Positions 8,755 through 56,214 are shown, counted from the first letter of the stretch. The stretch: 64,000 nucleotides of DNA from an uncultured Chthonomonas sp. (GCA_903919615.1 CAIXIX010000588.1:22324-86323); one strand, 5' to 3'. Numbers and translations: made by a program. Notes: generated from the letters alone by a model not told the origin.

Positions 8755-8830
8755 GAGACCGCCTTCTTCCGGAAATCAAACCGGTTCACCCACAATACGG
8801 TGAGGGTTCAGGGTTGGTTTTATGGAATTC

Positions 8831-8890: not shown

Positions 8891-8896
8891 CCCGAC

Positions 8897-11072: not shown

Positions 11073-11678
11073 TTAGGCGCGAACGCTTTTTCGGCGCAGC
11101 CTTCGCTTTGCAACCATGAGCCCCGTTACGCCCATGCCTGCAAGCATTGCATTTACGCCTGGCTCTGGCACCATAGCGAACTGTGCCGTAAAGTGGGACG
11201 TAGGCGTAAGACCTGTTATAACCAGGTGACCATTCGCAGTCTGGAGGTTGTTACCGTTGCCAGGGCCAAGCACGGCAGGGCCGGTGAGATTGATTGGCGT
11301 CGACAGTGTGTAGGTTGAAAGGCTCGGATTACTTGTTGCGATAAAGGCACCCGTCGTAAGGTCATAAAGACCAACCGACGTATTCGGCTGAGTATTGTAG
11401 AACAGGATAGAATCTAGCATCTTGTCAGTAAGGTTACCAACGGTTACACCCGTAAAAGGCTGCGGTATCGAAGCCGAATAAAAGCCGCCGCCGTTGTTCA
11501 CCACCTGGCTCAACGCTGTAAATCCCTGGAAGGATATCGTCTGATTGGTAAACGCTACGCCGTCAAGAGACCCGGAACCAACGAAGCTCTCAGTAAACAG
11601 AATTACCTGGGCATGAGCACTGGCACAAGCTACAAATAACCCTGCAGTAAGGACTAGTTTATTAATACATCGGAGCAC
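11073..11678 (-). CDS. PEP-CTERM sorting-domain secreted protein
   Basis: GTG start and signal peptide ending AHA. C-terminus VPEPGVNAMLAGMGVTGLMVAKRRLRRK has the PEP motif, a TM helix and a basic tail. Confidence 0.8.
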   Translation of the reverse strand: MLRCINKLVLTAGLFVACASAHAQVILFTESFVGSGSLDGVAFTNQTISFQGFTALSQVVNNGGGFYSASIPQPFTGVTVGNLTDKMLDSILFYNTQPNTSVGLYDLTTGAFIATSNPSLSTYTLSTPINLTGPAVLGPGNGNNLQTANGHLVITGLTPTSHFTAQFAMVPEPGVNAMLAGMGVTGLMVAKRRLRRKSVRA

Positions 11679-13401: not shown

Positions 13402-13423
13402 TGCGGTAATGCGGTAGTTGGTT
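13397..13423 (+). repeat. G/T-rich short tandem tract, copy B2
   Basis: GGTAATGCGGTAATGCGGTAGTTGGTT. The first unit contains stop codon TAA 13399-13401. Confidence 0.7.
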
Positions 13424-24745: not shown

Positions 24746-24759
24746 AGGATGTCTCAAGA

Positions 24760-26229: not shown

Positions 26230-26252
26230 ATCAGGCCTCGAACCATAAAGAC

Positions 26253-26328
26253 AGGTAAGTCGGTAGTTGTGTAAGTTGGTAAATGGATTATGCGGATTCA
26301 GGCGTTAGGTTTCAGGTGTTAGGACGGA
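26253..26328 (+). repeat. G/T-rich short tandem tract, copy B4 (longest)
   Basis: GGTAAGTCGGTAGTTGTGTAAGTTGGTAAATGGATTATGCGGATTCAGGCGTTAGGTTTCAGGTGTTAGGACGGAT. It fills the 109-nt spacer between the DUF1553 stop (26339) and the DUF1501 start (26229). Confidence 0.75.
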
Positions 26329-26338
26329 TATGGCCAGC

Positions 26339-29383: not shown

Positions 29384-29521
29384 CTGGTCGGATACCTGGG
29401 AAAAAGAGTGTGTGCGACTGCACGATAGACGCAGCAATAATTGGTGATGCCCTAAGCTGACTGATCGTTAGCCCTTTAGATCGCTATTCCCTGCTTTTGT
29501 TTCCGCATAGAATAGTAAGTG

Positions 29522-33816: not shown

Positions 33817-34479
33817 TTATCGCTGTGACGTATTTTTCGCTGCTAGGCGGCGACGCCTAAGAACTGACCAACCGCTGATACCAAGACCCATAACCATTGC
33901 TACGGCGCCTGGTTCTGGTGTTCTGGCCTGGCCATAGATTTGGAACGACTCCGAGTTCGTGCCTGGATATACGACATTTGTAAACATCGAAGAGGTTGGG
34001 CCATTGTTGTTATCCCAGTAGCCTCTTCCTCCACGCGACAATTGCGCCTGGCCAAGTGTAAGCCAGTATGTACCCGGCGCCAGATCGGCATTAATGAGGA
34101 AGCTGTATTCTGAACGATCCCATTGATTTTGATAATTTCCGAACACCAGCGTATCAATAGTCGCTGCAGATGTGCCCATCGCGATGTCGTTGGCTTGAGG
34201 CTGCGTTCCAATTTTCCACGTAACGGAAGTTAGGACATTACCAACGTCTGTCCAAATGCCAGCAGTAACCGAGTGAAGACTCGCGGAGTTGATTAGGCTA
34301 AACGCGTCCGATGCGTCATACGTTGTGTCAATGGCGAACGCACTTGCAGGAAATCCTGGCACCGGTCCGTCCCTGTACATCGGTCCGTTATCAAAAAGGA
34401 GCTGATCCGCTTTTGCCGAGCTGCTAGTCATTACCACAAGCAATAGGCCAATACCGATAAAACTGGATAATCGAAGCAT
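33817..34479 (-). CDS. PEP-CTERM sorting-domain secreted protein
   Basis: Track ORF trimmed to ATG 34479, giving signal MLRLSSFIGIGLLLVVMTSSSAKA. C-terminus TPEPGAVAMVMGLGISGWSVLRRRRL. Confidence 0.75.
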   Translation of the reverse strand: MLRLSSFIGIGLLLVVMTSSSAKADQLLFDNGPMYRDGPVPGFPASAFAIDTTYDASDAFSLINSASLHSVTAGIWTDVGNVLTSVTWKIGTQPQANDIAMGTSAATIDTLVFGNYQNQWDRSEYSFLINADLAPGTYWLTLGQAQLSRGGRGYWDNNNGPTSSMFTNVVYPGTNSESFQIYGQARTPEPGAVAMVMGLGISGWSVLRRRRLAAKNTSQR

Positions 34480-34596
34480 CTGTTGACACCTTTCCGTATC
34501 AAGAATTCGAGTTCGTGCAGCATGTTGAAACATTGTTAGTGTTCTAGAACCTGGACCGAACGATGGCAGATCACGATTTGTGACAGCAATGCGTAC

Positions 34597-34627
34597 AGTA
34601 TCGATACAAAGCGTGGCAAAAAGCGTT
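34597..34627 (-). promoter_or_regulatory. CACGCTT-type direct-repeat box plus GATACT upstream of PEP-CTERM gene 33817..34479
   Basis: Minus strand reads AACGCTT (34627..34621), 5 nt, CACGCTT (34615..34609), 6 nt, GATACT (34602..34597). Confidence 0.55.
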
Positions 34628-34760
34628 GCAAATTTCCGATGATTTGCGGACCGACCCACCATTAAGCAGCTTTTTTGTGGATCACCTTTACTATATTCAG
34701 CGGCGGTAGTTACGCATTTTGGTAATTTTGATCGCCTGATCGCAATTGACCCGAATATGC

Positions 34761-34791
34761 CACGCTTTTTGCCACGGTTGACCGTGATAAT
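34761..34791 (+). promoter_or_regulatory. CACGCTT-type direct-repeat box plus GATAAT upstream of frameshifted PEP-CTERM gene
   Basis: CACGCTT (34761-34767), 5 nt, CACGGTT (34773-34779), 6 nt, GATAAT (34786-34791). Confidence 0.55.
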
Positions 34792-34872: not shown

Positions 34873-35849
34873 ATGAGGGGGGATTTTCCCAAACATCTCG
34901 TTTTTGGGCTAATGCATCGCACGACCATGGTTGCAGCGGCAGCCTTTGCTTGCAGCACCTCTGCAAGAGCGCAATTCATAACTCTGAACGACCCGCTGGC
35001 AACGAACGGGACGTATGCAACTGGAATATCGGATCAACGATAGTTGGCAGCTACTACATCGCTTTCGGTATTCCTTATCCTTTCGAGTACGTGAACGGCG
35101 TCTACAGTTCCATTCCGGACGCTGTTGGAGCACGACAATCGGAAATGGTCTCCATATCAGGAAACACCGGACTCGGATGGTATGAGGACCATTCGACGCT
35201 GCAGCACTACTGGTATACAAGATCAGGCGGCGTGAACTCAATTGTTACCGATTTTTCACCACCGTACGGTCTTGACGCTAGCCTCACGGGAATATCCGGG
35301 AACAACCTGATTGGCTACACGAATGGAGGGGGCAGCAACTACTACGGGCTGTTTTACGACGGCAGCACAACAGTTGACCTAATTGAACATGCCGGCACCG
35401 ACACGTATGCGTTAGGCGTTGACGGAACGAACGTCGTTGGCGAGATCTTAGTGGCAGGCCCAGCTACTCAGAGCTTCCTTTACAATGCTCGCACGTTTAC
35501 GCCACTAATCGACCCACTTGCCTACGGGGAGACCATCGCTCGCGGGATATCCGGCGCAAACATCGTTGGCGATTATACGGATATGACAACTGAACACGGG
35601 TTTATTATTAACGCTACGAGATGGACTACGTACGACGTTCCGGTGGCTGAAGCCGTACAAACAGAGATTCAGGGCATATCTGGAAATACGATCTATGGGC
35701 AATACTTCACACACAACAGCCAGCTATACGGATTCGTGGATACTCTCAACCTATCCCCTTCATCCACTCCCGAGCCAGGAAATGTCGCAACTCTGATCGG
35801 GATAACTATTACCGCGGGCCTGGCGATTCAGCGCAGGCGCATTCGGTAA
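34873..35849 (+). pseudogene. HAF-like repeat PEP-CTERM protein, frameshifted near 35031
   Basis: ATG 34873 (GAAAGGAG upstream) gives signal ...AAAAFACSTSARA, then QFITLNDPLATNGTYATGIS. That frame stops at 35041-35043. The protein continues in the next frame as STIVGSYY... to TPEPGNVATLIGITITAGLAIQRRRIR. One extra G in TCGGA (35029-35033) would restore GISGSTIVG, matching the internal GISGxxIVG repeats. Confidence 0.65.
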
Positions 35850-35913: not shown

Positions 35914-35969
35914 GATGTGATTGGTATTTCTTGAAAAGACTCCGGTGTTACTGAATCGCAACAGTTTCT

Positions 35970-35988
35970 GTTACGCTCATGTTACGAT
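35970..35988 (+). promoter_or_regulatory. GTTACG direct repeats upstream of SBBP protein gene
   Basis: GTTACGCT, 3 nt, GTTACGAT, with 11-nt phasing. Lies 99-117 nt before ATG 36087. Confidence 0.3.
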
Positions 35989-36086
35989 GCGGCTGTAGCA
36001 TACTCCTGACAAGCGCACTCCACCCTTTGACAATCGCGTCGAAACTCACTCGACGGCTGAACTCGGGAGCCTTGTCGGGAGGGATC

Positions 36087-39356: not shown

Positions 39357-39415
39357 ATAGGTGATTAGGTAAGTTGGTAAATTGGTAATTGGGCGGTTTG
39401 ACGGATTGTTTATTG
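39357..39415 (+). repeat. G/T-rich short tandem tract, copy B5
   Basis: ATAGGTGATTAGGTAAGTTGGTAAATTGGTAATTGGGCGGTTTGACGGATTG, starting immediately after stop 39354-39356. Confidence 0.7.
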
Positions 39416-39487: not shown

Positions 39488-42400
39488 CTACTCACTCAGC
39501 GCGATTTGTGCCGCGCTATTCAGATCCATACTGCCTCCTTGAAGAACTAATGCTCTAAAACGCGCTTCTCCTATCCCCTCAGCAATAGCTGCTGAGGTCC
39601 GGGTAAATCCGGATCCTGGAGGCGCAAGACGCAGCCGCATTCTCTCTGCAGCGCACCAGCCACAAAGCAGCGCAGCCTCCTCATTGAATCCAAGCAAGTT
39701 TCTGAGGTTCGCGCTTTCCTCAATACACTTGAGTATGCCGACTCGAAAGTCGATCTCAAGTGCGAGGTTGAGCGACTCATGGAGTGATGCCCGTGCCCTC
39801 TCGTACTGTCCAATTTTCATCGCTACAAGAGCGATCCCGGTATGCGCTTCGGATATTCCCCCCTTGCTGCCCGTCGACTGATGATGCTTGAGGGTAGCCG
39901 CAAAACAGGAGAGAGCCTCGCTATACTCTCCTCGCGCCAGGTGAACTTGACCCAATCCATATCTAGCCTCAAACTCCACCCGCGGTTGGCCGGTTTCAAT
40001 CGAGAGCTCTATTGCCTTAAGGCTGTTGGAATAAGCTGCGTCCAGATCGCCCATTTCTCGGTAGATATACTCTAGCCTCGATCGCACGTTGGCTTCGCTG
40101 TATTTGTTGCCAAGTCGCGTCACTAGTTCAACGGCTCTGAGGCATACAACCAGCGCGGCCTCCAAATCACCTTTGAGAATGTATACATATGCAAGAGCCG
40201 AGAGTGCGCGAGCAATCTGGCTGTAATTCTTCAGCTGTTCGAGCAGGTCCAAAACAATATTGAACAGCTTCTCAGCTTCATCAAGCTCATTAACCAATCT
40301 CGACATGTTGGCGAGGCAGAGCACTGTTCTGGCGTGCAACTCCGTGTTTTGTTGAATCCCCTTATGCTCGTAAGCCCTTCGAAGATAGTGCATTCCATGT
40401 ATGAAGTAGGATCGAACATGCCAGAACCGCTCAAGCCCACATGCTAAGCTTGCAGCGAGTTCGCCTCCATCTGGATCCAGTAACGTTATCTCAAGGGCGG
40501 AGCGTATATTGGCGTATTCTGCAGCGACCCAGGCAACGCCCTGTTCAATTGGCGCCGTCCACGAGTTCCAAAGGCGGTGGTTCAGGTAAGTTGCGAAGTT
40601 TCGAACGAGCCCACGATGCTCCGGCAATGCTCTCAGCTTTTCGCCGGCATATTCGCGGATTGTATCGAGCATTCTGTAGCGAACTGAATCTCCGACTCGT
40701 TCCATTACGATCAACGAGCGGTCTACCAGTGCGCTCACCAGATCCATAATGGCTTCACGTTTGAGGGATGGGTACAATTCGTTCCGCGTGAATTCGCCGA
40801 TAGAAGGTGAGTGAGAGGAGTCAAAATCTGGAGGCTGCGAACTGCAGACCTGCTCAGCAGCCTCGAGCGTCCATCCGCCTGTAAATTCTGCGAGATAGGC
40901 GAGCAGCTTTTTCTCATCCTCTGTGAGCAGGACATAGGACCAATCGACCAGAGCTCTTAAAGTCTGCTGCCGTGGCATTGCGACCCTGCTGCCCGTGGTT
41001 AAAAGGCTAAACCGATCATTCAGCCGAGACTCGATCTGCTCCGGCGACAGGCTGCGTGTTCGAACCGCAGCAAGCTCAATCGCGAGCGCAATGCCATCCA
41101 ATCGCCGGCAGATGTTTGCGATTGAAGCAAGGTTCACCTGCGTAACACGAAACGTGGAGTTTGCTTCACGTGCACGCTGAACAAATAGCTGCACGGAAGA
41201 GTAGTCCAGCACGGTATCAACGGTCGGCTTTGAAACGGCCCCGGCATCTCCCACACCAATAGCCGGAGGAATCTCCAGTGTGGGCACCTGAAATACGCGC
41301 TCCCCGGAAATGTTGAGAGGCTGGCGACTGGTAGCAATTACCTTGAGAAAAGGAACTGCCTGGATCAGTTTATGAACCTGTAGTGCGCATGCGTCGATCA
41401 GGTGTTCGCAATTGTCAAGAATAACCAGGGATCTGCACTCCGCAAGGTTTTTCACTATGGCTTCAGAGAGTTCTACACCAACCTGCTCCGAAATCCCGGC
41501 CGCCTCTGCCATTACAATCGGCAGCATCGTTGGCTCCGAAACTGAAGCGAGATCGACAAAGAGAATCCCGTCCGTGTAAATTGCGTTTTGATGCTGGGCG
41601 ACATCCAGAGCCAGTCGCGTCTTCCCGATACCACCAGGACCGGTGAGCGTAACCAGCTTCGTCGAATTCAACAGGGAGACCACTTCGAGACGGGCATCTT
41701 CACGGCCGAAAAGAGTGGTCAGTGGCCTTGGAAGCGGCTTGAATTGTGTTGGCGTATGTTGAGGATTCGCAAACGTGGAACAACCACTGTCAACTGCGCG
41801 TGCTTTGCTCCGTATTGGCTCTGAATGCTGCGGTAGTGTGTGTCGTTCTCGAAGGATTTCGAACAGGGCCTGAGTTTCGGCATCAGGCTGCGTATTGAGC
41901 TCACCATGAAGGAGGAGGCGCAAATCACGATATGCCTTTATCGCCTCCGGGACATTGCCTGAGTTTGAGAGCGCGTGCATCAGAGTACGGTACGCCGACT
42001 CGTTGAACGCATCGGACGCGATCAGCTGCCGGGCGAAACCTGCTGCCTGTAGCCATGCGCCGGATTCTAGTGCGCTTGCGGCGAGCGCATCGAGTGCTAA
42101 TGCGTATTGCTGTTCGCGCAGCACACGGGCAGGTATGGCCCACTCTTCCGGGCATTCGACCAGCAGTGGGCCGCGGTACAGCGAAACGGCCTGCTTGAGC
42201 GAAGCAATATCACCATTATACAGTAACTGATCGAACTCAGTCAGGTCACAGACGACGCCTTCTCGTTCCAGACAAATGGTGCGATAGGATTCGGATTGAA
42301 TAAGTCTGCGGTAATCGCCCAGGTCGTTGTTTAGGTCGCTCAAAGCTCGGCGAAGATAGTAACGCGCCATTCCGGTCTCGGCATCTGGCCATAGGGCAGT

Positions 42401-42595
42401 GGAGAGCCACGCCCTATCAACCGGTTTGCCAAGGTTGAGCGCAAGAAGGCCGAGAAGCCACTGCTCCTTCCGGGTCTTGAGGACCATTGGGCCAGCGCCA
42501 GACAGCTCCAGAATGCCAAATAGGTTGATTGTTAGTTGTGCGGGGTATGATGCGTTGGTGGCGCCAGGCATTAGCTTCTCCGGTCGGCTCGCCAT
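39488..42595 (-). CDS. AfsR-like regulator: SARP winged-helix + BTAD + NB-ARC (STAND) NTPase + TPR array
   Basis: N-terminal LTINLFGILELSG...LWPDAETGMARYYLRRALSDL (OmpR-type wHTH). BTAD helices AYRTLMHALSNSGNVPEAIKAYRDLRLLL. Walker A GPGGIGKTRLAL. Long TPR C-terminus. Alternative start ATG 42571 has a better GGAG. Confidence 0.85.
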   Translation of the reverse strand: MASRPEKLMPGATNASYPAQLTINLFGILELSGAGPMVLKTRKEQWLLGLLALNLGKPVDRAWLSTALWPDAETGMARYYLRRALSDLNNDLGDYRRLIQSESYRTICLEREGVVCDLTEFDQLLYNGDIASLKQAVSLYRGPLLVECPEEWAIPARVLREQQYALALDALAASALESGAWLQAAGFARQLIASDAFNESAYRTLMHALSNSGNVPEAIKAYRDLRLLLHGELNTQPDAETQALFEILRERHTLPQHSEPIRSKARAVDSGCSTFANPQHTPTQFKPLPRPLTTLFGREDARLEVVSLLNSTKLVTLTGPGGIGKTRLALDVAQHQNAIYTDGILFVDLASVSEPTMLPIVMAEAAGISEQVGVELSEAIVKNLAECRSLVILDNCEHLIDACALQVHKLIQAVPFLKVIATSRQPLNISGERVFQVPTLEIPPAIGVGDAGAVSKPTVDTVLDYSSVQLFVQRAREANSTFRVTQVNLASIANICRRLDGIALAIELAAVRTRSLSPEQIESRLNDRFSLLTTGSRVAMPRQQTLRALVDWSYVLLTEDEKKLLAYLAEFTGGWTLEAAEQVCSSQPPDFDSSHSPSIGEFTRNELYPSLKREAIMDLVSALVDRSLIVMERVGDSVRYRMLDTIREYAGEKLRALPEHRGLVRNFATYLNHRLWNSWTAPIEQGVAWVAAEYANIRSALEITLLDPDGGELAASLACGLERFWHVRSYFIHGMHYLRRAYEHKGIQQNTELHARTVLCLANMSRLVNELDEAEKLFNIVLDLLEQLKNYSQIARALSALAYVYILKGDLEAALVVCLRAVELVTRLGNKYSEANVRSRLEYIYREMGDLDAAYSNSLKAIELSIETGQPRVEFEARYGLGQVHLARGEYSEALSCFAATLKHHQSTGSKGGISEAHTGIALVAMKIGQYERARASLHESLNLALEIDFRVGILKCIEESANLRNLLGFNEEAALLCGWCAAERMRLRLAPPGSGFTRTSAAIAEGIGEARFRALVLQGGSMDLNSAAQIALSE

Positions 42596-42671
42596 GTGGC
42601 GCCCGGGGCGATGCAGTTCATCACCAGATCAGACATTTTACCCTCTTGTAATGCAATTGGCTTAGAATATG

Positions 42672-42703
42672 CCACGCTTTGTGACACGCTTGCCTGCGAA
42701 AAT
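42672..42703 (+). promoter_or_regulatory. CACGCTT direct-repeat box plus -10-like hexamer upstream of NHL PEP-CTERM gene
   Basis: CCACGCTTTGTGACACGCTTGCC. Heptamers at 42673-42679 and 42685-42691. After a 6-nt gap comes GAAAAT at 42698-42703. Confidence 0.55.
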
Positions 42704-42813: not shown

Positions 42814-43752
42814 ATGCTTGTGCTTTCTAAGGCTTCGACAACATGTCGACGCGTTACATTCTCTCGATTCCAGTCTTTCTGCAGCTTAGCTGCGGTTGCT
42901 CTGCTTATTCTGTGCGCCGCCGAAGCGAATGCGCAATTTCTGTATGAATCTGATGCCGGCACCGGAACCATTAACAGGTTCACATCATCCGGCAGCAAGA
43001 GCGTCTTTGCGACGGGATTCTCCTCTCCGAGAGGCATTGTATTCGACAGCAGCGGAAATGCTTACATATCTGAATACGGAGCCGGAGACATTGTCAAGAT
43101 TGCACCAGGCGGAGGGAGAAGCATCTTTGTAAATGACATAACTCTTCCAGAAGGTCTGGCATGCGATAGCAGCGGAAATATCTACGTTGCGGATTATTGG
43201 ACCGGCAACGTCATAAAAATCACGTCTGGGGGTTCAGAATCAATCTTCGCTTCTGGGTTCAATTCACCGAAAGGTATTGCCCTCAATAGCAGTGGCGATC
43301 TCTTTGTGGCATCTGAAGGGGACAACGGCATCTATGAGGTTACTCCGGGAGGATCCGTATCATTATTCGCCTCAGAATCAGCGCCACAGCATGTCGCAGT
43401 CGATAGCCATGGAAACCTGTACGGTACCGTTCAGGACCCAGGTTCGGTTGTAGAGATCAGTCAGGGCGGAGCAAATACGACGATTGGCACCGGATTTACC
43501 TATCCGTGGGGAATCGCGATCGATCCCAGCAGCAATATCTTTGCTTCGGATCTGTACGGAGGCACAATCAAAGAGTACTTCGCCGGTGGAGGAAGCACGA
43601 CGTTCGCTTCAGGGCTCAGCTTACCTGCCGACCTTACATATGTCCCCGGGCCAGCCACGAGTTCTACTCCGGAGCCAGGGACCTTCGCGATGCTGATTTG
43701 TCTGGGAGTAACTGGCACGGCGGTGCTGCGCAAAAGACGCAGATCTGTTTGA
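42814..43752 (+). CDS. NHL-repeat beta-propeller PEP-CTERM protein
   Basis: ATG 42814 follows AGGAGG. Signal ends AEANA. Six units like SPRGIVFDSSGNAYISEYGAGDIVKIAPGG. C-terminus TPEPGTFAMLICLGVTGTAVLRKRRR. Confidence 0.85.
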   Translation: MLVLSKASTTCRRVTFSRFQSFCSLAAVALLILCAAEANAQFLYESDAGTGTINRFTSSGSKSVFATGFSSPRGIVFDSSGNAYISEYGAGDIVKIAPGGGRSIFVNDITLPEGLACDSSGNIYVADYWTGNVIKITSGGSESIFASGFNSPKGIALNSSGDLFVASEGDNGIYEVTPGGSVSLFASESAPQHVAVDSHGNLYGTVQDPGSVVEISQGGANTTIGTGFTYPWGIAIDPSSNIFASDLYGGTIKEYFAGGGSTTFASGLSLPADLTYVPGPATSSTPEPGTFAMLICLGVTGTAVLRKRRRSV

Positions 43753-44826: not shown

Positions 44827-44998
44827 GAAGAGGGATGAGGTACGAGGGAAATGGGAACTGCGCACAATACAAGCAGCCGTTACCTCTGTTAGTGATCGGG
44901 ACCAGGGCATTGTTGGAGGGGAGGCGCATCGTGATTGATGTTCCGCCCCTTTTTTGTTGGTCCGCACTATCTCGATTAGACAAGTCATCCTCTGTTTA

Positions 44999-45030
44999 CC
45001 ACGCTTTGTGACACGCTTGCCCTTTATACG
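44999..45030 (+). promoter_or_regulatory. CACGCTT direct-repeat box plus -10-like hexamer upstream of HAF PEP-CTERM gene
   Basis: The same 23-mer as at 42672-42694. Heptamers at 45000-45006 and 45012-45018. After a 6-nt gap comes TATACG at 45025-45030. Confidence 0.55.
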
Positions 45031-45153: not shown

Positions 45154-45537
45154 ATGTTTTCTTTCACCACAACGCGCTCGCGAAGAAACTGTTTCAGGCT
45201 GTATTCAGCATTGGCTACAGTTTCTCTTCTTATGTGCGTAAGTCAAGCTCACGCTCAGTTCAAGATTCTGGACGATCCACTTGGAACCATCTACACGAGC
45301 CCAAACGGGATATCAGGTTGCATCGTCGTTGGCGACTATTATAGCCTGGCCGGGCAGCACGGTTATCTGTACAACATCTACGACGGGCAGTACACCACGT
45401 ACGATGTGCCAGTATTGGGCGCGCAACAGACGCAGATCAAGGCTGTAGACGGAAACGAATTCGTTGGTACGTTTTACGATAGCAGCAACCATATGCACGG
45501 TTTCGAAGACAGCTTTGGTGGAATACAGGGTGGCTAA
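45154..45537 (+). CDS. Short HAF-like repeat secreted protein, truncated by TAA just before its PEP-CTERM signal
   Basis: AAGGAGG RBS and a signal ending AHA. QFKILDDPLGT...GISGCIVVGDYY is paralogous to 34873..35849. The ORF ends at TAA 45535-45537. Confidence 0.7.
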   Translation: MFSFTTTRSRRNCFRLYSALATVSLLMCVSQAHAQFKILDDPLGTIYTSPNGISGCIVVGDYYSLAGQHGYLYNIYDGQYTTYDVPVLGAQQTQIKAVDGNEFVGTFYDSSNHMHGFEDSFGGIQGG

Positions 45538-45636
45538 CCCACACCTACCACTCCGGAGCCAGATGCTCTTGCCACCGTGCTTGGCCTCGGCATCACTGCT
45601 ATTGCTGCCATTCGGAAGCGGAGAAATATGCGCTGA
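45538..45636 (+). other. Orphan in-frame PEP-CTERM coding tail
   Basis: Directly after TAA 45535-45537, in the same frame: PTPTTPEPDALATVLGLGITAIAAIRKRRNMR, then TGA. This is a complete PEP motif with TM helix and basic tail. Confidence 0.7.
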
Positions 45637-47230: not shown

Positions 47231-50200
47231 TTAATGATCAGTTTCCAACAACGTGCCTACTTCGGCAAGGCAGTCGGCCCACGGATGCTCTTCTGATTGG
47301 CTCTCGTTGCTGCTTGACGACGTCAGGCGCTCCGGGCCGACTTTCTCCCAATACTCATCTACTATCCTAATTTCGTAAGGCATTAGCTCATATCCTAACT
47401 CAGCGTGGAGCGCAGTTGCCGATCCAAGCAGACGAAGTGCCGATTGGTTTTGGCCCTGTTCGATCGCGACACCGCATGCAATGATAAAGCCACACCATAT
47501 TGCACGACGCTGATCCGTGCGTATAGCCCTATCCCATACTGACTGACACAACGAACACGCGGCCTGGCTATCCTGTCTCATCATCGCGACAAGAGCCCTC
47601 ACGAGTACATTAGAAATCGCAATTTCAGATCTGGATGTGAGCTTCCCTATCTCCACGCTGTAATGGTCAACTTCCGCTCGATCTTCGCAACACAGCGCTA
47701 GTTTCAATCCCTGAATGAGCAGCTCTTTGCGGAGCCCCTTCCATTCTGGGGGACACATTGCGAGGGTCTCCTCCAGGCTGGCTTTTGCCTGGGAATAGTC
47801 TCTTTCAAATAACGCCAGCGTTACGTACTCCTGCCGAACATTGATCTGATTAATGACAGACGACTGAATGGAAGCTGCATATGTCATCGCCTCATCTAAC
47901 AGCTGCCTGCCTGCCTGATGCTCGCCGGTTTCGATGTGAATGCGTGCCAGACATGTGGCGGCCGCGCAGATATGCTCCTTATCACCTATCTCGCGATACG
48001 TCTCAAGGCTCATCGTTGCTTGATGCCGGGCAGATTTGACTAGTCCCTGCCAGTGCCGAATATCAGCGAGCGCCAATCGAAGTTTCGCTGTGCCCCAAGG
48101 ATCGTTTTTCTTGCGAGCGATACAGGTTTCAAGAAGTGCTCCAGAACGATCAAGATCCCCCTGTTCCGTATGGTGACCCGCCAGGTAAGCCATCGCGAGC
48201 AATACACCGTATTCATTGCCCTGTTGTGTGTATGCCACCAGCAACTCTTCGAGAATTTCTAAGCGTGTCTCCGGAAATTCCTCCAGCCCGCTAAGAGCCA
48301 GCAACGCCTCGGTGAATAGGGGATCGTTCTGTCTGTCTCGCAGCTCCCTGACAAGACTTCGAAGAATTTCGCGCCGTAACCCTGCCGTATCAGCATTGTG
48401 CGAATTCACCGTAATCGAAAGGCGCATTCCATGTGGAAGGGCTAGCTCCTGGCTTCGTACAAATGCCCGTTCCGCCCATTCTGTTCGCTCCTGCGGAAAT
48501 CCACGAACTTTCCAAAACCAGTCCATGTCGATAGCGAGCCTTAGCCCCGTCATTATGTCGCCGGCGGAAAAAGTGTGGCGCAATGCGGCTCGCAGATTTT
48601 CGCGCTCGCGTTCCAGCATATCGAGGTTTTTCGCTATTTCGTGTGCCTCACGTGGCTGAGAGGGCTCACAAAGAATGCGGAGGCGATTTAGGTGCACCTG
48701 ATAATAGGTAGCGTGAAGGTCCTGAAGGGTGCATCTCGAGTTGTAGTCTATCTGCTCCCAGGCGAATTCGCGCAGCGTTTCAAGCAGTCTAAAGCGCGGT
48801 TCGCCATCGATATCATCGCAACATGGCAGCGATTGTTCCTGTAACTCGATCAGAAGCGATCCTGCCGCGGCTGTCAATTCCTGAGAATTATCACCATCGC
48901 GCAGACAGATTGCGGCTGCGGCCTCGACAGTCCAACCGCCATGAAAGACTGAGAGAGCAGTAAAGAACGCCTGTTGTGGTGGTGTGAGCAGATTGTAGCT
49001 CCACTCCATTGTGGCTCGAAGGCATCGGTGACGAGGCGCCAGGTCCTGGTGTCGACCGCTAAGCCCCGCGAGATGTTGCTCCAACTGTGCTCGCATACGC
49101 GCCGGAGGAACGGTTCGTGCCCACGCTGCAGCCATCTCGATTGCGAGCGGCAAGCCTTCCAGCCGTCGGCACAGCGCAGCAACATGTTCAGCGTTGCCTG
49201 CAGTGAGCTCAAAATCCGGCTTTACTGCCTGTGCCCTGTCTACGTAAAGTGCTACGCAATCGAGTGCCTGAAGATTATTAATATTTTGGTGCTGCGACGG
49301 CACGGAAAGTGGTGAGATAGCGAATTCGCGTTCGCCATTCAAGCAAAGCGAGCGGCGAGAAGTAATCAGGCAAGTGAGAGCTGGCGCGCACTCCAATAGA
49401 GCACGTACAAATGCTGCGCCGTTAACGGGTCGACCATCACTCTCAATGGCGTCGCTTACGTCCTGCTTTAGAAGTTGCTCGTAGTTATCCAGTACCAGTA
49501 ATGTTGGCGCAGAACCAAGTGCACGAGCGATTAAGTCCATCACATTGATGCCAGGTTCCACTGTTAAATTTAGTGCCCCGGCCAGCGCAAAGGGAAGCAA
49601 GCGTGGATGCGAAATATCCGCCAGGCCAACATATCGGACGCCTCCTGGGAAGACACCGGCAAGTCGTTCAGCGACTTCTATCGACATCCGCGTCTTACCA
49701 ACACCTCCGGGCCCAGTTAAAGTGAGAAGCCGCAGCGCAGGCTTTGCAATTGGAGACAGGAGCACCGTGATTCGCTCAATCTCGATCTTTCGCCCAAAGA
49801 ACTGAGTTAGGCAGAGAGGCAATGCTGATCGAGGTGAACTAGTGGCAGTAGTGCTGCGCTGTTCAACCGCAGCATCACGCTGGACTTCTGCACCACGGGG
49901 CAGGTCGATTGGCGTGGATACCTGATGTTGAAAGGAGCCCGGATCCTGGCGAATGCGCTGCACCAGGTCCGAAACGATAGGTCTAGGAGCGAGGTTCAGA
50001 TCCGCTAGAAGTCGTCTGGATAGAACTTGCATTGACTCCAATGCTTCTGCAGTCCGACCCATACCGGCGAGTATTCGCATCTTTGCCGCACATGCAGCTT
50101 CGTCGTAACAATCGACTGCGATGGCGCAGTTAGCCGCATGCAGCGCAGATGGCAGATCCCCCAGTTGCTCGCAAGAATCAACCAGCATGGATAGGGCGGC

Positions 50201-50683
50201 GGAATACGTCAACGCTAGCTGTGCGCGCGCTTCGACTGCCCAATCGGCATATATTCCAGGCAGCAGCTCAGCCGTGTAGAGCTCCCTCGCCTGATCCAGT
50301 AGAGTTCGGCGATGCGCGTGCGCCTGTGTCTGGCCGGCCAGGCGGATCCGTTTTTCGAACTCACTGACATCTGTTGTAAAGGCACCTGTGTTGAGCGATA
50401 TTGTATGACGGTCCGCCATTACAATGTTTGTACCAACCTCACCTAGCGAGTTGAATAGACGACGCAAGCTGGCAAGGGTGGTACTAAGGTTATCTCGACC
50501 AGCGCCTTCATCCAGATGCGACCAGAAGATTTCAACCAGTTGTTCGCGCGGATGAGCACGCGGATACAAAGCCAGATAAGCCACCAGTGCACCCGCCTTG
50601 TTGGCGGGGATCTGAATTGCTTCTCCGTCTGCACCTGCCATGCGTGGTCCGCCCAACAGCTCAATATGTATGCAGCCAGTCAT
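47231..50683 (-). CDS. AfsR-like regulator: SARP winged-helix + BTAD + NB-ARC (STAND) NTPase + TPR array (second copy)
   Basis: IHIELLGGPRMAG...QLVEIFWSHLDEGAGRDNLSTTLASLRRLF (wHTH). BTAD helices ACAAKMRILAGMGRTAEALESMQVLSRRL. Walker A GPGGVGKTRMSI. Long helical-repeat C-terminus. Confidence 0.85.
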   Translation of the reverse strand: MTGCIHIELLGGPRMAGADGEAIQIPANKAGALVAYLALYPRAHPREQLVEIFWSHLDEGAGRDNLSTTLASLRRLFNSLGEVGTNIVMADRHTISLNTGAFTTDVSEFEKRIRLAGQTQAHAHRRTLLDQARELYTAELLPGIYADWAVEARAQLALTYSAALSMLVDSCEQLGDLPSALHAANCAIAVDCYDEAACAAKMRILAGMGRTAEALESMQVLSRRLLADLNLAPRPIVSDLVQRIRQDPGSFQHQVSTPIDLPRGAEVQRDAAVEQRSTTATSSPRSALPLCLTQFFGRKIEIERITVLLSPIAKPALRLLTLTGPGGVGKTRMSIEVAERLAGVFPGGVRYVGLADISHPRLLPFALAGALNLTVEPGINVMDLIARALGSAPTLLVLDNYEQLLKQDVSDAIESDGRPVNGAAFVRALLECAPALTCLITSRRSLCLNGEREFAISPLSVPSQHQNINNLQALDCVALYVDRAQAVKPDFELTAGNAEHVAALCRRLEGLPLAIEMAAAWARTVPPARMRAQLEQHLAGLSGRHQDLAPRHRCLRATMEWSYNLLTPPQQAFFTALSVFHGGWTVEAAAAICLRDGDNSQELTAAAGSLLIELQEQSLPCCDDIDGEPRFRLLETLREFAWEQIDYNSRCTLQDLHATYYQVHLNRLRILCEPSQPREAHEIAKNLDMLERERENLRAALRHTFSAGDIMTGLRLAIDMDWFWKVRGFPQERTEWAERAFVRSQELALPHGMRLSITVNSHNADTAGLRREILRSLVRELRDRQNDPLFTEALLALSGLEEFPETRLEILEELLVAYTQQGNEYGVLLAMAYLAGHHTEQGDLDRSGALLETCIARKKNDPWGTAKLRLALADIRHWQGLVKSARHQATMSLETYREIGDKEHICAAATCLARIHIETGEHQAGRQLLDEAMTYAASIQSSVINQINVRQEYVTLALFERDYSQAKASLEETLAMCPPEWKGLRKELLIQGLKLALCCEDRAEVDHYSVEIGKLTSRSEIAISNVLVRALVAMMRQDSQAACSLCQSVWDRAIRTDQRRAIWCGFIIACGVAIEQGQNQSALRLLGSATALHAELGYELMPYEIRIVDEYWEKVGPERLTSSSSNESQSEEHPWADCLAEVGTLLETDH

Positions 50684-50809
50684 CTATTCAACCTTCACAC
50701 ATCCCATTCTGCTCAAAGGCTGGTTCCAAGCCGATCATGGAGCGAGCAATCTCATGCGGTAAGGACCAAAATGGTTCATTGCTTGTTGCCCGGCATGCGT
50801 AAATAACCT

Positions 50810-50849
50810 CTTCGGAAATGCTTCGGAGTTATTTCAGAGTTCTTACGGA
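50810..50849 (+). promoter_or_regulatory. CTTCGGA heptamer direct repeats upstream of CBM PEP-CTERM gene
   Basis: CTTCGGA (50810-50816), 4 nt, CTTCGGA (50821-50827), then a degenerate CTTACGGA at 50842-50849. Phasing is 11 and about 21 nt. Confidence 0.4.
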
Positions 50850-50940
50850 GATGCCAATTATACTGGTGGAAGTGGCAAGTGCGGCGTATCCGCAGCTGCC
50901 TGGAAACACCTCTATACTTTGCAATGGAAGGATATTGCTA

Positions 50941-51504
50941 ATGCATCTCAGAAAGCTATGCCTTGCTGCACTGTTCGTTGGCGCAACATCTATGGCCCAT
51001 GGCCAAAACCTCGTTCAAAATCCCGGTTTCGAAACTGGAGATCTAACTGGTTGGGCGACAGTCGGCCCTGTCACAGTAGGTACTCCAGGAATTACGGGTT
51101 CATCTGCAGCCTATTTCGCTCAGGGCAATGCGTTCACTGACACGCTGACGCAGACATTGGCCACAACGACAGCAGCGGACTACGACGTCAGTTTCAATCT
51201 TCAAGGCACCAGCCAATTTGTAGACCTTCGAGTATACCTTGGGACCGGAGGTTTTCCAATCTACGAAGGGTTCGGCGCGCAAGATGGAGTGCACAACTTT
51301 ACCTATACTGCCACTACAAACAGCGACAATCTAGAGTTCTGGGCCGACTTCACTGGTGACACGTTTCTGCTTGACAATGTGAGTGTAACGCCACACACCA
51401 CTCCCTCCAGCACTCCTGAACCTGGCTCAGTTGCTCTTCTCATCGGGTTGAGCGCTACAGGAGCTGGTTTCCTCGGCCGCACTCGCCTACGAAAAACCCG
51501 TTAG
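50941..51504 (+). CDS. PEP-CTERM protein with CBM4/9-like carbohydrate-binding beta-sandwich
   Basis: ATG 50941 gives signal MHLRKLCLAALFVGATSMAHG. NLVQNPGFETGDLTGWATVG is a CBM-like opening. C-terminus TPEPGSVALLIGLSATGAGFLGRTRLRK. Confidence 0.8.
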   Translation: MHLRKLCLAALFVGATSMAHGQNLVQNPGFETGDLTGWATVGPVTVGTPGITGSSAAYFAQGNAFTDTLTQTLATTTAADYDVSFNLQGTSQFVDLRVYLGTGGFPIYEGFGAQDGVHNFTYTATTNSDNLEFWADFTGDTFLLDNVSVTPHTTPSSTPEPGSVALLIGLSATGAGFLGRTRLRKTR

Positions 51505-52610: not shown

Positions 52611-55600
52611 ATGGCGCATACACAAAGCGGCGCAAGTTTCAGGGACCTTGCATTTCTTGCCTTATCGCTCGTAGCCGCTGCGGCCGCGCAGGGTCAGCAA
52701 CACCCGGCTTCTGCGAAGCTGGAGTTCAACCGCGATATTCGCCCAATCCTATCGGATAACTGCTTCGCCTGCCATGGCCCGAACAAGGCCGCACGGCAGG
52801 GCGGACTGAGACTGGACGATAAATCGTCAGCGCTAACCACCGGCGCGGTCGTGCCCGGTCACCCGGAGAAGAGTGCGCTTGTCGCGCGTATCAACGGCTC
52901 CGGCGGTCCCATTATGCCGCCTGTAACCACGCACAAGACTCTTAATGCCACTCAGAAAAAACTGCTAACCGATTGGGTTAAACAGGGCGCCCCGTTTCAG
53001 CCCTACTGGGCCTATGGCCCGCTTCGCCGCCCTGCTGTTCCGAAGATCACCTCGACAAGCCTCTTCACGGTCCGCAGCCCGATCGATAGTTATATCCTCG
53101 AGAAGTTGAACAGCAAGAAGATAACGCCCTCCAAAGAGGCCGATCGCCGGACCCTTATTCGTCGCCTTTCTCTCGACCTTATTGGCCTGCCGCCAACTCC
53201 TCGCGAAGTTTCTGCGTTTCTTGCAGACAAGTCTCCCGATGCCTACAACCATCTCGTTGATCGCCTTATGATGTCGCCGCATTACGGAGAGAGAATGGCG
53301 GTTCCCTGGCTCGACATGGCACGCTATGCCGATACCGTTGGGTTTCATGGCGATCAGAATATGAACTCCTGGCCCTATCGCGACTATGTGATCGATTCGT
53401 TCAACAAGAACAAGCCCTTCGATAAGTTCACCATCGAACAGCTTGCCGGCGATCTGCTCCCCAACCCAACCCCAGAACAGCTCACGGCCACATGTTTTAA
53501 CCGCCTGAACATGGTCACCCGGGAAGGCGGGGCGCAGGATAAAGAGTATCTGGCTAAGTCTGCCGCAGATCGTGTGCGCACCGTCGGCATGACGTTCTTT
53601 GGTTCAACCTTCGCCTGCGCCGAGTGCCACGATCATAAGTTCGACCCCATCACCACACGCGATTTCTACAGTTTGGGCAGCTTCTTTGCAGACCTGAAAC
53701 AGTGGGGCATCTATGCCGATTATGGCTACACTCCCAACCCCGATCTGCGCGGATACAACAACGACTATCCGTTCCCGCCCGAGATTAAAGTAAACAGCGC
53801 TTACCTGCAGCAGAGGATCGCGAAGCAGAGGGCTGCTATTGGAGAGATCGCAGCACATGCTCTACTAACTGCTGCCCAGCAGGATCGAGACAGGTTTAAT
53901 GCCTGGATCGGCGCCTGCGGCACGTTTGTGAAGCAGCACCCGGATAGCTGGGAGACGCCTATTCCGAAAGTTGCTGCGAACGGGCGCAACTCAAAAGGCG
54001 AATTCGATGAGAAGGCGGCCCGACCCGGATTCGCCATTCAGCCCAATGGCAGCATTCTGCTCACCGACAGCTCACCCGGCGACATCACGCTCACGCTCAA
54101 GCCCGAATCGCCCTATCTCGCATCCGTTAGAGTAGAGATCCTGCCTCGCACAGAGAATGGCGATACGGTATACCGCAAAGGCCTCATGTCGGCTCGAGTT
54201 GGTATCGCGGCAGCCGTCGTCCACGCTGGCGATCAGATGGTTCCCGTAGCCTTCCGCTTCGCCACCGCCAATTTCTCCGAGCCGGAATATAACTCTGGCC
54301 ACGAGGTAGCCAATTTGAAGGGTGGATGGCGAGCATCTAAAGAAAACAGCAAGAGCACACAAGTTGCCGTCTGGTATCCCGATACGCCCATCGCACTGGG
54401 CGAGACTGATACAGTCGAGATCTCGCTCCCTCGCATTCAGGCGGGCTGCGTGCGGGTATCTTTATCACCCTTCGTCCCAGAACGTCCTGGTGTGCCTGCG
54501 ATTACAGATGTTTTGAAAACGGCGCTCATAGTTATGCAAAGCGGCGGACTGAAAACTGCCAGTCTCAGCAGCATTGTGCCAAGCTTGTCTGCCCCGATTA
54601 CCCAATTTCTTGAGGGCACTGCCTGGAGCCCAAACGCTTTTGCGCGCTACAAAGCGATTGAGGCGGATATTTTCGAATGCCGCGAGGGCCGCACGCCCGT
54701 CATGGTTGCAGAGGCGCGTAAGGAGCCACTTGTAACTCGCATTCTGGCACGCGGCAACTGGCAGGATGAGAGCGGCGCAATTGTTGAGCCAACCCTTCCC
54801 AGCTATCTACCGCATGAAACTGCGCCCAAGGGCCGAAGGCTCACGAGGCTCGATCTGGCAAAGTGGATCGTGTCCGACGAGAACCCGATTACCGCGCGTG
54901 CCATGGTCAACCGGTACTGGCGGCTCTTTTTCGGCACTGCGATTAGCGCCCAGGTGGAGGATCTGGGCGCGCAGGGCGAATGGCCGACGCATCCGGAACT
55001 TCTGGACTGGCTAGCCACCGAGTTCCGCTCCTCCGGGTGGGACATGAAGCACATGGTTCGCCTTATCGTCACGTCATCCACCTACCGGCAGGAATCGAAA
55101 CTGCGGCCAGAGCTAAAGGATATCGATCCTGCCAATCGGCTCCTCTCCAGCCAGAATCCCAGACGCCTGGAGGCAGAGCTCGTGCGAGACAATGCGCTCA
55201 CTATCGCAGGCATGCTGAATTCGGATCTTGGGGGTCCACCCTGCTTCCCGTATCAGCCTGCGGGCTACTACGCGAATATTCAGTTCCCGGATCGAGACTG
55301 GATTGCGAGCGGTGACGACCGCCAGTATCGGCGCGGCCTGTACATGCACTGGCAGCGGACCTTCCTGCACCCGATGCTCGCTAACTTTGATGCGCCTTCT
55401 CGCGAAGACTGCACTGCCACGCGCACCAATGCCAACACACCTCAGCAGGCGCTCACGCTGCTGAACGACCCCGAGTTTACCGAGGCGGCGCGCGTTCTTG
55501 GCACGGAGCTAGCAACGAAAAACATCTCCGATGCCGTGCGGGTTGAGACGCTCTTCCAGCGCGCACTGTGCCGGTCGCCGCGCGCAAACGAGCAGGCGTC

Positions 55601-55784
55601 ACTGTTAACCTTCCTGAAGCAGATGCGCACTGCGTACCATGAGCGGCCAGCCGATGCGGCCGCTTTCCTGCACATCGGCAACGCGCCAGCGCCTTCAACG
55701 TCCGTTTCTAACGAAGAGCTCGCTGCCTGGGCGAATGTGTGCAGAGTTGTGCTGAACCTGCATGAGACGATCGTTAGATACTAG
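52611..55784 (+). CDS. PSCyt / DUF1549 / DUF1553 protein (third paralog)
   Basis: Signal peptide, haem motif CFACHG, the block RRLSLDLIGLPP, and CAECHDHKFDP. Confidence 0.85.
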   Translation: MAHTQSGASFRDLAFLALSLVAAAAAQGQQHPASAKLEFNRDIRPILSDNCFACHGPNKAARQGGLRLDDKSSALTTGAVVPGHPEKSALVARINGSGGPIMPPVTTHKTLNATQKKLLTDWVKQGAPFQPYWAYGPLRRPAVPKITSTSLFTVRSPIDSYILEKLNSKKITPSKEADRRTLIRRLSLDLIGLPPTPREVSAFLADKSPDAYNHLVDRLMMSPHYGERMAVPWLDMARYADTVGFHGDQNMNSWPYRDYVIDSFNKNKPFDKFTIEQLAGDLLPNPTPEQLTATCFNRLNMVTREGGAQDKEYLAKSAADRVRTVGMTFFGSTFACAECHDHKFDPITTRDFYSLGSFFADLKQWGIYADYGYTPNPDLRGYNNDYPFPPEIKVNSAYLQQRIAKQRAAIGEIAAHALLTAAQQDRDRFNAWIGACGTFVKQHPDSWETPIPKVAANGRNSKGEFDEKAARPGFAIQPNGSILLTDSSPGDITLTLKPESPYLASVRVEILPRTENGDTVYRKGLMSARVGIAAAVVHAGDQMVPVAFRFATANFSEPEYNSGHEVANLKGGWRASKENSKSTQVAVWYPDTPIALGETDTVEISLPRIQAGCVRVSLSPFVPERPGVPAITDVLKTALIVMQSGGLKTASLSSIVPSLSAPITQFLEGTAWSPNAFARYKAIEADIFECREGRTPVMVAEARKEPLVTRILARGNWQDESGAIVEPTLPSYLPHETAPKGRRLTRLDLAKWIVSDENPITARAMVNRYWRLFFGTAISAQVEDLGAQGEWPTHPELLDWLATEFRSSGWDMKHMVRLIVTSSTYRQESKLRPELKDIDPANRLLSSQNPRRLEAELVRDNALTIAGMLNSDLGGPPCFPYQPAGYYANIQFPDRDWIASGDDRQYRRGLYMHWQRTFLHPMLANFDAPSREDCTATRTNANTPQQALTLLNDPEFTEAARVLGTELATKNISDAVRVETLFQRALCRSPRANEQASLLTFLKQMRTAYHERPADAAAFLHIGNAPAPSTSVSNEELAAWANVCRVVLNLHETIVRY

Positions 55785-55806
55785 GTTTTCGGTGTTAGGT
55801 TTTAGC
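55782..55806 (+). repeat. G/T-rich short tandem tract, copy B7
   Basis: TAGGTTTTCGGTGTTAGGTTTTAGC. The first TAG is the stop codon of 52611..55784. Confidence 0.7.
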
Positions 55807-56086
55807 CCGACGCACTCGGTCCTCGCTTCGCTCGGCGTGCGCAGTGAACCCGGTTTTTTGACTGACATGTCGCCTGCCGGATTGATGGTGAAGCAGACGC
55901 TAATGTTGCTGCAAACCACATTGCGGTGGCGTGAAGGGGCGCTGCTTGCCGCGCCCTCTATGGATAACATTGCCGTCAACAAAAGCTAGACGTGACAACT
56001 GGATGACTATTGTTGATGTTTAGATTCGGCATGCGAACTGCTAATGGGCGCAGTGACGATCCGGATCTAGAGGGGCTGTGCAAACC

Positions 56087-56142
56087 AGCCCTCACCCCGA
56101 CCCTCTTCCACGCAAGCGGGGAGAGGGAGAAAATTCACGCGC
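56087..56142 (+). repeat. Palindromic C-rich/G-rich intergenic element, copy C3
   Basis: AGCCCTCACCCCGACCCTCTTCCACGCAAGCGGGGAGAGGGAGAAAATTCACGCG. The arms CCCTCTTCC and GGAGAGGG can pair. Confidence 0.7.
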
Positions 56143-56214
56143 TCCAAGCAGCGCAACCACCGGTCAATGCAATGCCTGGAATTGGGAGTGGAGAGCATGA
56201 GTAGAGGGAATACG

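Follow-up and report, generated by a model that had tools for sequence, protein, structure and literature searches.

Does a large regulator encoded beside a gene for an exported protein control that gene, or do the two only happen to be neighbours? We discuss this question for a locus in 64,000 nucleotides of DNA from an uncultured Chthonomonas sp. (GCA_903919615.1, CAIXIX010000588.1:22324-86323), the whole of which is called the window below. Here the gene of a 1150-residue protein with SARP, NB-ARC/STAND and TPR-like parts (regulator 2) is divergent from a gene whose predicted product ends in a PEP-CTERM tail (cargo 2, 50941..51504), and a paralog, regulator 1, lies in the same window beside a PEP-CTERM gene of its own (cargo 1). 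On the whole, our analysis indicates that regulator 2 probably activates cargo 2 by a mechanism of the type known for AfsR of Streptomyces coelicolor. The architecture, the repeat arrays, their geometry and conservation, and the statistics of adjacency are read directly from sequence, and the positions of all features are collected in Table 1.

Regulator 2 and its divergent neighbour

The domain order of regulator 2 is seen at the level of sequence as well as of structure. The BTAD domain is recognised as Pfam PF03704 with E 4.6e-12 (residues 104-245, above the cut-off), and residues 3-357 align with AfsR 23-363 (phmmer, E 1.7e-10); the AfsR matches in NCBIfam are partial only, and the Pfam AAA_16 match has 28.7 bits, under its cut-off of 32.6. 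In an AlphaFold2 (AF2) model built from 36 homologs, with a predicted local distance difference test (pLDDT) score of 84.5, the N-terminal winged helix-turn-helix (wHTH) is made of strands at residues 5-24, helices at 28-80 and a hairpin at 88-104. Foldseek superposes the SARP domain on the AfsR SARP chains 8k60 and 8hvr with template modelling (TM) scores of 0.81-0.82, and the 103-residue N-terminal fragment by itself has no significant match among PDB sequences. The recognition helix is NLSTTLASLRR (residues 65-75), and AfsR residues W74, T88, R94 and K95 correspond to W54, T68, R74 and R75, the base-contacting R92 of AfsR being S72 here. A linker, disordered in the model (residues 257-285), leads to the NOD, where Walker B LLVLDN and a GLPLA motif occupy invariant columns of the family alignment. 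The fold of the NOD matches the STAND-TPR protein 6mfv, which is also the top whole-protein match, as well as Apaf-1, CED-4 and NRC NB-ARC proteins, and EmbR is also among the Foldseek matches of regulator 2. The helical repeats resemble MalT domain III (TM 0.76); TPR families are matched by homologs and by the family profile, and regulator 2 itself has no Pfam TPR match. Judged by domain architecture, regulator 2 is a one-component AfsR-type large SARP. It belongs to an enormously expanded family, whose homologs at about 35% identity number in the thousands; many named members are Chthonomonadales, and the nearest named ones, also at about 35%, belong to Chthonomonadaceae/Chthonomonadales.

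The NB-ARC/STAND-TPR architecture is common to Avs-type defence proteins and eukaryotic NLRs, and one might take regulator 2 for an NLR-like immune or defence sensor, with the surface protein unrelated or a decoy. However, PADLOC has no match for regulator 2, the N-terminal position of the effector is occupied by a DNA-binding SARP domain with its DNA-contact residues conserved, and the protein carries no nuclease, protease or other killing domain. A role in defence is thus very improbable, and regulator 2 is treated below as a predicted transcription factor.

For cargo 2, the predicted start MHLRKLCLAALFVGATSMAHG/QN was judged by eye to be a signal peptide, in line with those of 14 homologs to which it aligns. 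The model of the protein (pLDDT 76.8) matches the CBM61 structure 2xon at E 1.4e-7 and also CBM16, CBM4 and CBM22 at E 1e-5 to 1e-6 in Foldseek. Cargo 2 itself has no Pfam match and so no PF02018 (CBM_4_9), which is recorded in 4 of 15 homologs; since CBM folds are matched by the model, "CBM4/9-like" is a fair label for the fold. The tail consists of TPEPG, 19 hydrophobic or small residues and RTRLRKTR, a motif plain by sequence and of the same form as the tail of cargo 1 (19.4 bits), and Pfam PF07589 is found in most homologs. A custom hidden Markov model (HMM) of such tails gives 55 bits, a score that is not independent because the training set included cargo 2 and other tails of the window. 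The original prediction stands in all these respects: the 1150-residue regulator with the order wHTH, BTAD, Walker A and helical repeats is confirmed by Pfam, phmmer, AF2 and Foldseek, the divergent arrangement across 257 bp by the coordinates of the open reading frames (ORFs), and the CBM4/9-like beta-sandwich cargo by the CBM matches, its PEP-CTERM tail being plain as a motif but just under the cut-off of the curated TIGR02595 model.

A putative SARP box in the spacer

By a custom period scan we found in the spacer between regulator 2 and cargo 2, at 50810-50853, four tandem 11-bp direct repeats (CTTCGGAAatg CTTCGGAGtta TTTCAGAGttc TTACGGAGatg), each made of an 8-nt conserved core, yTTCGGAG, and three variable nucleotides. 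The array has 23 of 33 period-11 matches; it is the sole region with at least 21 in the 64-kb window and one of four regions with at least 23 in 2.33 Mb of bacterial DNA. Tandem Repeats Finder leaves it unreported because its score is under the threshold of that program, and it also escapes a strict two-unit composite scan, since in units 3 and 4 only 6 of 8 positions match. For SARP promoters, PMC10936776 gives a repeat spacing of 11 or 22 bp and a distance of 8 bp between the 3' repeat and the -10 element; it further describes that in every 11-bp repeat a protomer touches the first 8 bp, and that the afs box extends from -40 to -19. The array has the same geometry at the level of sequence: a TATACT hexamer on the strand of cargo 2 follows the last core, and from a start predicted near 50871 the box would extend from about -61 to -18, the proximal two units from about -39 to -18. 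These data support a SARP-type promoter in the spacer, directed at cargo 2, with the array as its putative box.

Other elements were also considered. A sigma-54 promoter was rejected, as spacer 2 contains no -24/-12 element (TGGCACG-N4-TTGCW), and a repeat pair CATGCGGTAAGGACC / CATGCGTAAATAACC (41-nt spacing, 73% identical) was set aside as chance. Known RNA elements were not detected in 33-53 kb at E up to 1, and the predicted 5' untranslated region of cargo 2 is not unusually structured (z = -0.66).

The box is conserved together with the regulator. We searched 2.37 Mb on both strands for TTCGGAG-N4-TTCGGAG, allowing at most one mismatch and a period of 10-12; the pair was found only in the window, in three loci of relatives (L085, L087 and L172) and at one stray site, with about 0.75 expected by chance. 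These three loci carry P0002, P0003 and P0004, which are the three best homologs of regulator 2. In all of them the repeats immediately precede the regulator gene but are on the other strand and point away from it, with 8 nt between the last core and the hexamer, which is TATACT in L085 and L087 but TATAAT in L172. The recognition helix AGRDNLSTTL is common to regulator 2 and the three homologs, while other helices pair with other boxes: regulator 1 with TGCCACGC, the regulator of L018 with TTTAACGG, that of L045 with TTTACGAT and that of L173 with GTAGGGA. In L173, with the homolog P0012 (40% identity to regulator 2; 7665-9737, minus strand), the divergent spacer (9738-10000) contains TGTAGGGA / CGTAGGGA, 8 nt and TAGAAT, directed at a divergent gene for a 690-residue Peptidase_S74 or adhesive-fibre-like protein, apparently a further case of a surface-protein target.

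The box might instead mainly autoregulate or repress the regulator gene, with cargo 2 transcribed from a promoter of its own. Indeed, the box is 127 nt from the ATG of regulator 2, and a second TATACT at 50910-50915, 26 nt before the ATG of cargo 2, might serve as that promoter. In L085 and L087, moreover, a second conserved box, TTGGAACGC twice and then TATACT (TTGGAACGC / TTGAAACGC; L087 9587-9620 and L085 8443-8476, both plus strand), is aimed at the regulator, which suggests autoregulation or cross-regulation in these loci. However, the repeats in spacer 2 are direct and the hexamer 8 nt past their 3' end sits on the cargo strand, the TTCGGAG box points away from the regulator in all three homologs, and the SARPs characterised to date are activators (PMC10936776). 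A box serving chiefly the regulator gene is therefore quite unlikely, and we keep to cargo 2 as its predicted target. As a separate observation, a start-less PEP-CTERM remnant (TIGR02595, 22.7 bits) lies between the second box and the regulator in L087.

Regulator 1 and the census of adjacency

Regulator 1 allows a comparison within the same window, as it is likewise divergent from its PEP-CTERM neighbour. The two regulators are 27% identical over 940 residues, which shows that they are old paralogs, and each of them is closer to proteins of other organisms (about 35-42%). Their recognition helices have 3 of 11 positions in common, and the box type of regulator 1, two copies of TGCCACGCTTT with a 12-bp period, is distinct from the TTCGGAG box. 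With at most two mismatches, none of 100 shuffles reaches the observed count of regulator 1 boxes. Four boxes of this type all precede PEP-CTERM genes in the correct orientation, and their -10-like hexamers line up, so that 4 of the 6 PEP-CTERM genes in the window would have a common SARP-type promoter; among the remaining two, cargo 2 has its own box and only 11073..11678 (minus strand) has neither. Over the whole window, both strands counted, there are only 7 matches to the strict composite motif. A sigma-54 reading of these boxes, which resemble TGGCACG-N4-TTGC, was rejected, the GG being absent at all sites and the TTGC at 2 of 4.

Two of the genes behind these boxes are irregular. In 34873-35849 (plus strand) the signal-peptide N-terminus MRGDFPKHLVFGLMHRTTMVAAAAFACSTSARAQF is in another frame than the body (ORF 34950..35849), with an apparent 1-nt shift near 35030 (TCGGATC; GISG in the paralog), and the gene is either a frameshift pseudogene or affected by an assembly error. 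Its paralog 45154-45636 (plus strand) has an in-frame TAA (45535-45537) directly before a good PEP-CTERM tail, PTPTTPEPDALATVLGLGITAIAAIRKRRNMR; this copy, with its weakened -10 TATACG, may be decaying.

Is the adjacency of such regulators to PEP-CTERM genes more than chance? To count this we took 157 loci with 174 regulator ORFs, chosen by homology of the regulator without regard to neighbours (by genome scan, metagenome scan and contig look-ups), and located PEP-CTERM genes with the tail HMM and a six-frame scan; several of the tails are confirmed by TIGR02595. Overall, 7 of 10 PEP-CTERM clusters directly adjoin the regulator where 1.98 are expected (P about 5e-4; when the short contig L096 is left out, about 9e-4), the ten including the tail of L032, which falls short of the HMM threshold and was entered manually as a non-adjacent case. 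Among the seven, L018 and L050 are divergent, L031, L045 and L087 are upstream on the same strand, and L096 and L170 are downstream. In addition, the cluster of L090 is the second gene of a divergent operon, and in L172, which was fetched later and is outside the count, the PEP-CTERM gene is the last of a divergent operon. PEP-CTERM proteins appear to be a frequent class of targets and not an obligatory one.

A few further observations were made in these loci. In L170 (16740-21380, minus strand) an adenylate-cyclase-NB-ARC-TPR STAND gene without SARP has two paralogous PEP-CTERM genes directly downstream on its own strand. A variant tail, VPE(A/S)STTVS(F/L)GLLLALGLGG..KRRK, is present in L082 (10001-16384, plus strand), L018 (6014-9676, minus strand) and L045 (8163-9813, plus strand); it is missed by TIGR02595, occurs on at least four consecutive genes in L082, adjoins SARP-STAND regulators in two Capsulimonadaceae loci, and may be a distinct exosortase-type signal. 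Within about 10 kb past the right edge of the window there are no further SARP genes, according to a Pfam-only gene list that is blind to PEP-CTERM tails.

The neighbourhood could still be a coincidence in a genome rich in PEP-CTERM genes. In that case regulator 2 would act at other sites or only on its own gene, and the repeats would have no function or would serve a different protein of the OmpR family. A number of points weigh for this explanation, or against parts of the one we prefer. The window has five intact PEP-CTERM tails and a sixth behind an in-frame stop among about 45 genes, and under a random gene-slot model the adjoining of a regulator by 2 of the 4 clusters has P about 0.05. 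OmpR/PhoB-type response regulators have boxes of the same repeat geometry, to which another wHTH protein could bind, and assigning the adjacent SARP as the binder therefore rests on its co-location and on the co-variation of helix and box. The expansion of the family noted above points the same way. PEP-CTERM genes are absent from the vicinity in most of the 157 loci, and the majority of family members, which come from Chloroflexi, Actinomycetota and Acidobacteriota, lack such a neighbour. In the loci of P0002 and P0003 the gene set faced by the TTCGGAG box is a carbohydrate-enzyme operon of GFO_IDH_MocA oxidoreductase, esterase and GH2. The pairing is thus a local matter and does not characterise the family. 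The cargo domain is not conserved across the clade of regulator 2 either, the PEP-CTERM protein of L172 having only the tail, and that of L090 only the N-terminal GFETGDLTGW motif, in common with cargo 2. A reciprocal check from the cargo side found that P0123, a homolog of cargo 2 elsewhere, has no SARP neighbour, and period-11 repeats pooled upstream of 46 SARP-bearing relatives show a weak trend of enrichment. As for the promoter and the product, the -10 call assumes sigma-70-like promoters, which may not be those of the host, the tail of cargo 2 scores 14.2 bits against TIGR02595 with its cut-off of 16, and an exosortase was not recognised among the window proteins scanned.

On the other side, the TTCGGAG box and the common helix travel with the regulator clade across four unrelated contexts, the top period-11 signal of the window falls within this very 257-bp spacer, and the enrichment in the census is significant. 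Taken together, we consider a coincidence unlikely, though less so than the two alternatives discussed before, and activation of cargo 2 by regulator 2 the probable reading. The original prediction had expected two different repeat boxes, which agrees with the alignment of the two regulators and the comparison of their helices and boxes, and it had argued that two pairs within 12 kb are functional. The functional part of this argument is strengthened by the box, the footprint, the second box type before four PEP-CTERM genes, and the census, in which adjacency goes beyond chance; the window pairs by themselves do not carry it.

For binding, activation, signal and export we infer the following course. 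The wHTH/BTAD protomers would lie side by side on the 11-bp repeats, one 8-bp core each, by homology to AfsR. The proximal two units would stand in for a -35 element, 8 nt upstream of TATACT, and the SARP domain would there make contact with sigma region 4 as well as with the core of RNA polymerase ("sigma adaptation"). Until it is released by ATP binding together with a ligand or partner sensed by the repeats, the SARP domain would be kept autoinhibited by the ATPase (NB-ARC/STAND) and the TPR-like region. Cargo 2 would then be exported by Sec and its tail processed by an exosortase, leading to anchoring at the cell surface. Regulator 1 would act likewise, with its own helix and its own box before the four PEP-CTERM genes at 33.8-45.6 kb. 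As the two regulators have their own boxes, the region would make up an island of genes for surface proteins, controlled by two SARP switches that each answer to a specific signal.

Other features of the window were noted outside these two systems. Arrays of a 9-nt unit ACTTCAAAG (2.8-4.6 copies) occupy four intergenic gaps between minus-strand genes, GxGYxYP and its neighbours (1726-1767, 3408-3437, 4060-4088 and 8856-8885), and could be a shared regulatory element of another kind. The 8-nt arrays GGTAATGC / GGTAAGTT / GGTAATT are located at three gene boundaries (13397-13416, 26254-26282 and 39368-39392). A SARP-like composite at 35968-36010 (plus strand), with CTGTTACG / ATGTTACG 11 bp apart, 9 nt and TAGCAT, is just before the gene (to 39356) of a secreted SBBP/DUF7948/DUF11 protein of 1089-1125 residues. 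Three gene pairs at 21644-29437 and 52611-57654 have PSCyt1-PSCyt2-PSD1 proteins (about 1040 residues) beside DUF1501 proteins, and a related contig has PSCyt2/PSD1 genes together with N_methyl pilin-like genes. Glycoside-hydrolase-like genes (GxGYxYP, fucosidase, DUF4838) are numerous in the window as well, and its gene content fits a polysaccharide degrader, PVC-like or Armatimonadota-like.

Table 1. Positions of the features of the two window systems, and boxes of related loci
Feature	Position	Strand	Description and basis
Regulator 2 gene	47231..50683	-	AfsR-type large SARP (SARP-NOD-TPR); ATG ORF, 1150 aa
SARP domain, aa 1-253	49925..50683	-	OmpR-type wHTH aa 1-104 and BTAD helices 105-253
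NOD, about aa 295-645	48749..49801	-	NB-ARC-type STAND ATPase and winged helix; alpha/beta fold, Foldseek and family alignment
Walker A, aa 324-331	49691-49714	-	GPGGVGKT; invariant in family alignment
C-terminal sensor region, aa 647-1147	47243..48745	-	Helical repeats (TPR-like), about 26 paired helices; AF2
Divergent spacer (spacer 2)	50684..50940		257 bp, between regulator 2 and cargo 2
Putative regulator 2 box	50810..50853	+	Four tandem 11-bp direct repeats; period scan
-10-like hexamer	50859..50864	+	TATACT, 8 nt past last core; points at cargo 2
Shine-Dalgarno-like element	50926..50932	+	GGAAGGA, 8 nt before ATG; sequence
Cargo 2 gene	50941..51504	+	187 aa, predicted secreted CBM-like beta-sandwich protein with PEP-CTERM tail; agrees with public gene callers
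Cargo 2 signal peptide	50941-51003	+	MHLRKLCLAALFVGATSMAHG
Cargo 2 beta sandwich	51004-51393	+	AF2/Foldseek
Cargo 2 PEP-CTERM tail	51412-51501	+	TPEPGSVALLIGLSATGAGFLGRTRLRKTR
Regulator 1 gene	39488..42571/42595	-	Paralogous SARP-NOD-TPR, 1027-1035 aa; helix YLRRALSDLN
Cargo 1 gene	42814..43752	+	ScyE-like NHL propeller PEP-CTERM protein; ScyE_fam 1.5e-27, PEP_CTERM 19.4 bits
Regulator 1-type box	42670..42689	+	TGCCACGCTTTG TGACACGC then GAAAAT; points at cargo 1
Regulator 1-type box	34611..34630	-	TGCAACGCTTTT TGCCACGC then GATACT; points at PEP-CTERM gene 33817..34482(-)
Regulator 1-type box	34758..34777	+	TGCCACGCTTTT TGCCACGG then GATAAT; points at PEP-CTERM gene 34873..35849(+)
Regulator 1-type box	44997..45016	+	TACCACGCTTTG TGACACGC then TATACG; points at PEP-CTERM gene 45154..45636(+)
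Box of L018			TTTAACGG x3; 8 nt to -10-like TAAAGT
Box of L045			TTTACGAT x2; 7-8 nt to -10-like TATATT
Box of L096			TTGGGACG x2; 9 nt to -10-like TATACT
Box of L173			GTAGGGA x2; 8 nt to -10-like TAGAAT

Comparison with known systems

The nearest known system is AfsR (PDB 8k60, 8jke, 8hvr), a large SARP composed of SARP, NOD, arm and TPR. Its domain order is that of regulator 2, in which the C-terminal repeats are TPR-like, and at the DNA-contact positions W, T, R and K/R are retained. AfsR shows constitutive activity when truncated. The layout of its target is also like that of spacer 2, with 11-bp repeats, an 8-bp core and 8 bp to the -10 element, and with -40 to -19 in AfsR against about -39 to -18 here. 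However, the two proteins are only about 23% identical and the host of regulator 2 lies outside the actinomycetes. Four units make up the array here, against two for AfsR, and S72 replaces the R92 of AfsR. While AfsR acts on afsS and secondary metabolism, the predicted target of regulator 2 is a single adjacent surface-protein gene, and no link to an AfsK-type kinase is evident for it. MalT and PH0952-type proteins (PDB 1hz4, 6mfv) likewise combine a STAND ATPase with a helical-repeat sensor, and by this likeness ligand and ATP would activate regulator 2; MalT, however, has a C-terminal LuxR helix-turn-helix, whereas the DNA-binding module of regulator 2 is N-terminal and of SARP type.

Cargo 2 resembles the CBM4/9, CBM16, CBM22 and CBM61 modules and the NCBIfam NTTRR-F1 and choice-of-anchor C domains in its beta-sandwich fold (TM up to 0.72 on the target), in the N-terminal NPGFETG..GW and in the C-terminal LDNVSV strand. 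The solved CBMs differ from it, being 12-24% identical, and sugar binding by cargo 2 is putative; unlike CBMs that are parts of enzymes, cargo 2 is a stand-alone module on a PEP-CTERM anchor.

The regulators described for PEP-CTERM genes are PrsK/PrsR with RpoN (sigma-54), in Proteobacteria (e.g. PMC9850573). That system also governs genes of PEP-CTERM/exosortase substrates, but its regulator class and promoter type are entirely different. In Geobacter sulfurreducens, deletion of GSU1771, a member of the SARP family, alters the expression of exosortase (epsH) and PEP-motif genes (PMC10599522). GSU1771 is a non-actinomycete SARP-type protein like regulator 2, but it consists of receiver and SARP without NOD or TPR; its action is global, it is not known to affect PEP-CTERM genes directly, and it does not adjoin its cargo. 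In the literature searched we found no link between PEP-CTERM and BTAD, AfsR or NB-ARC regulators. To our knowledge, work on large SARPs has dealt almost exclusively with antibiotic regulators of actinomycetes, and no targets are assigned to the thousands of homologs in other phyla.

Our analysis thus supports, on present sequence evidence, a mechanism of the AfsR type in a setting that is new both phylogenetically and functionally, with a code of regulator, box and cargo that can be read from sequence: the predicted target follows from a conserved box, a conserved helix and an adjacent gene. This gives a testable rule for predicting regulons of the SARP-STAND family in uncultured bacteria, and natural helix-box pairs for the study of SARP DNA specificity. 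It also points to a second route of PEP-CTERM control besides PrsK/PrsR/RpoN, and suggests that the host changes its surface lectin-like proteins on specific signals sensed by TPR domains. More tentatively, and with somewhat less than even chances in our view, SARP-STAND switches may form a widespread and previously unrecognised layer of control over surface and secreted proteins in Armatimonadota-like and Verrucomicrobia-like bacteria, with PEP-CTERM/exosortase cargo among the favoured targets and many regulator-box-cargo cassettes per genome. If this is true, each paralog would pair a recognition helix of its own with a separate direct-repeat box next to its gene, and the layer as a whole would be an alternative to the PrsK/PrsR/sigma-54 system of Proteobacteria.

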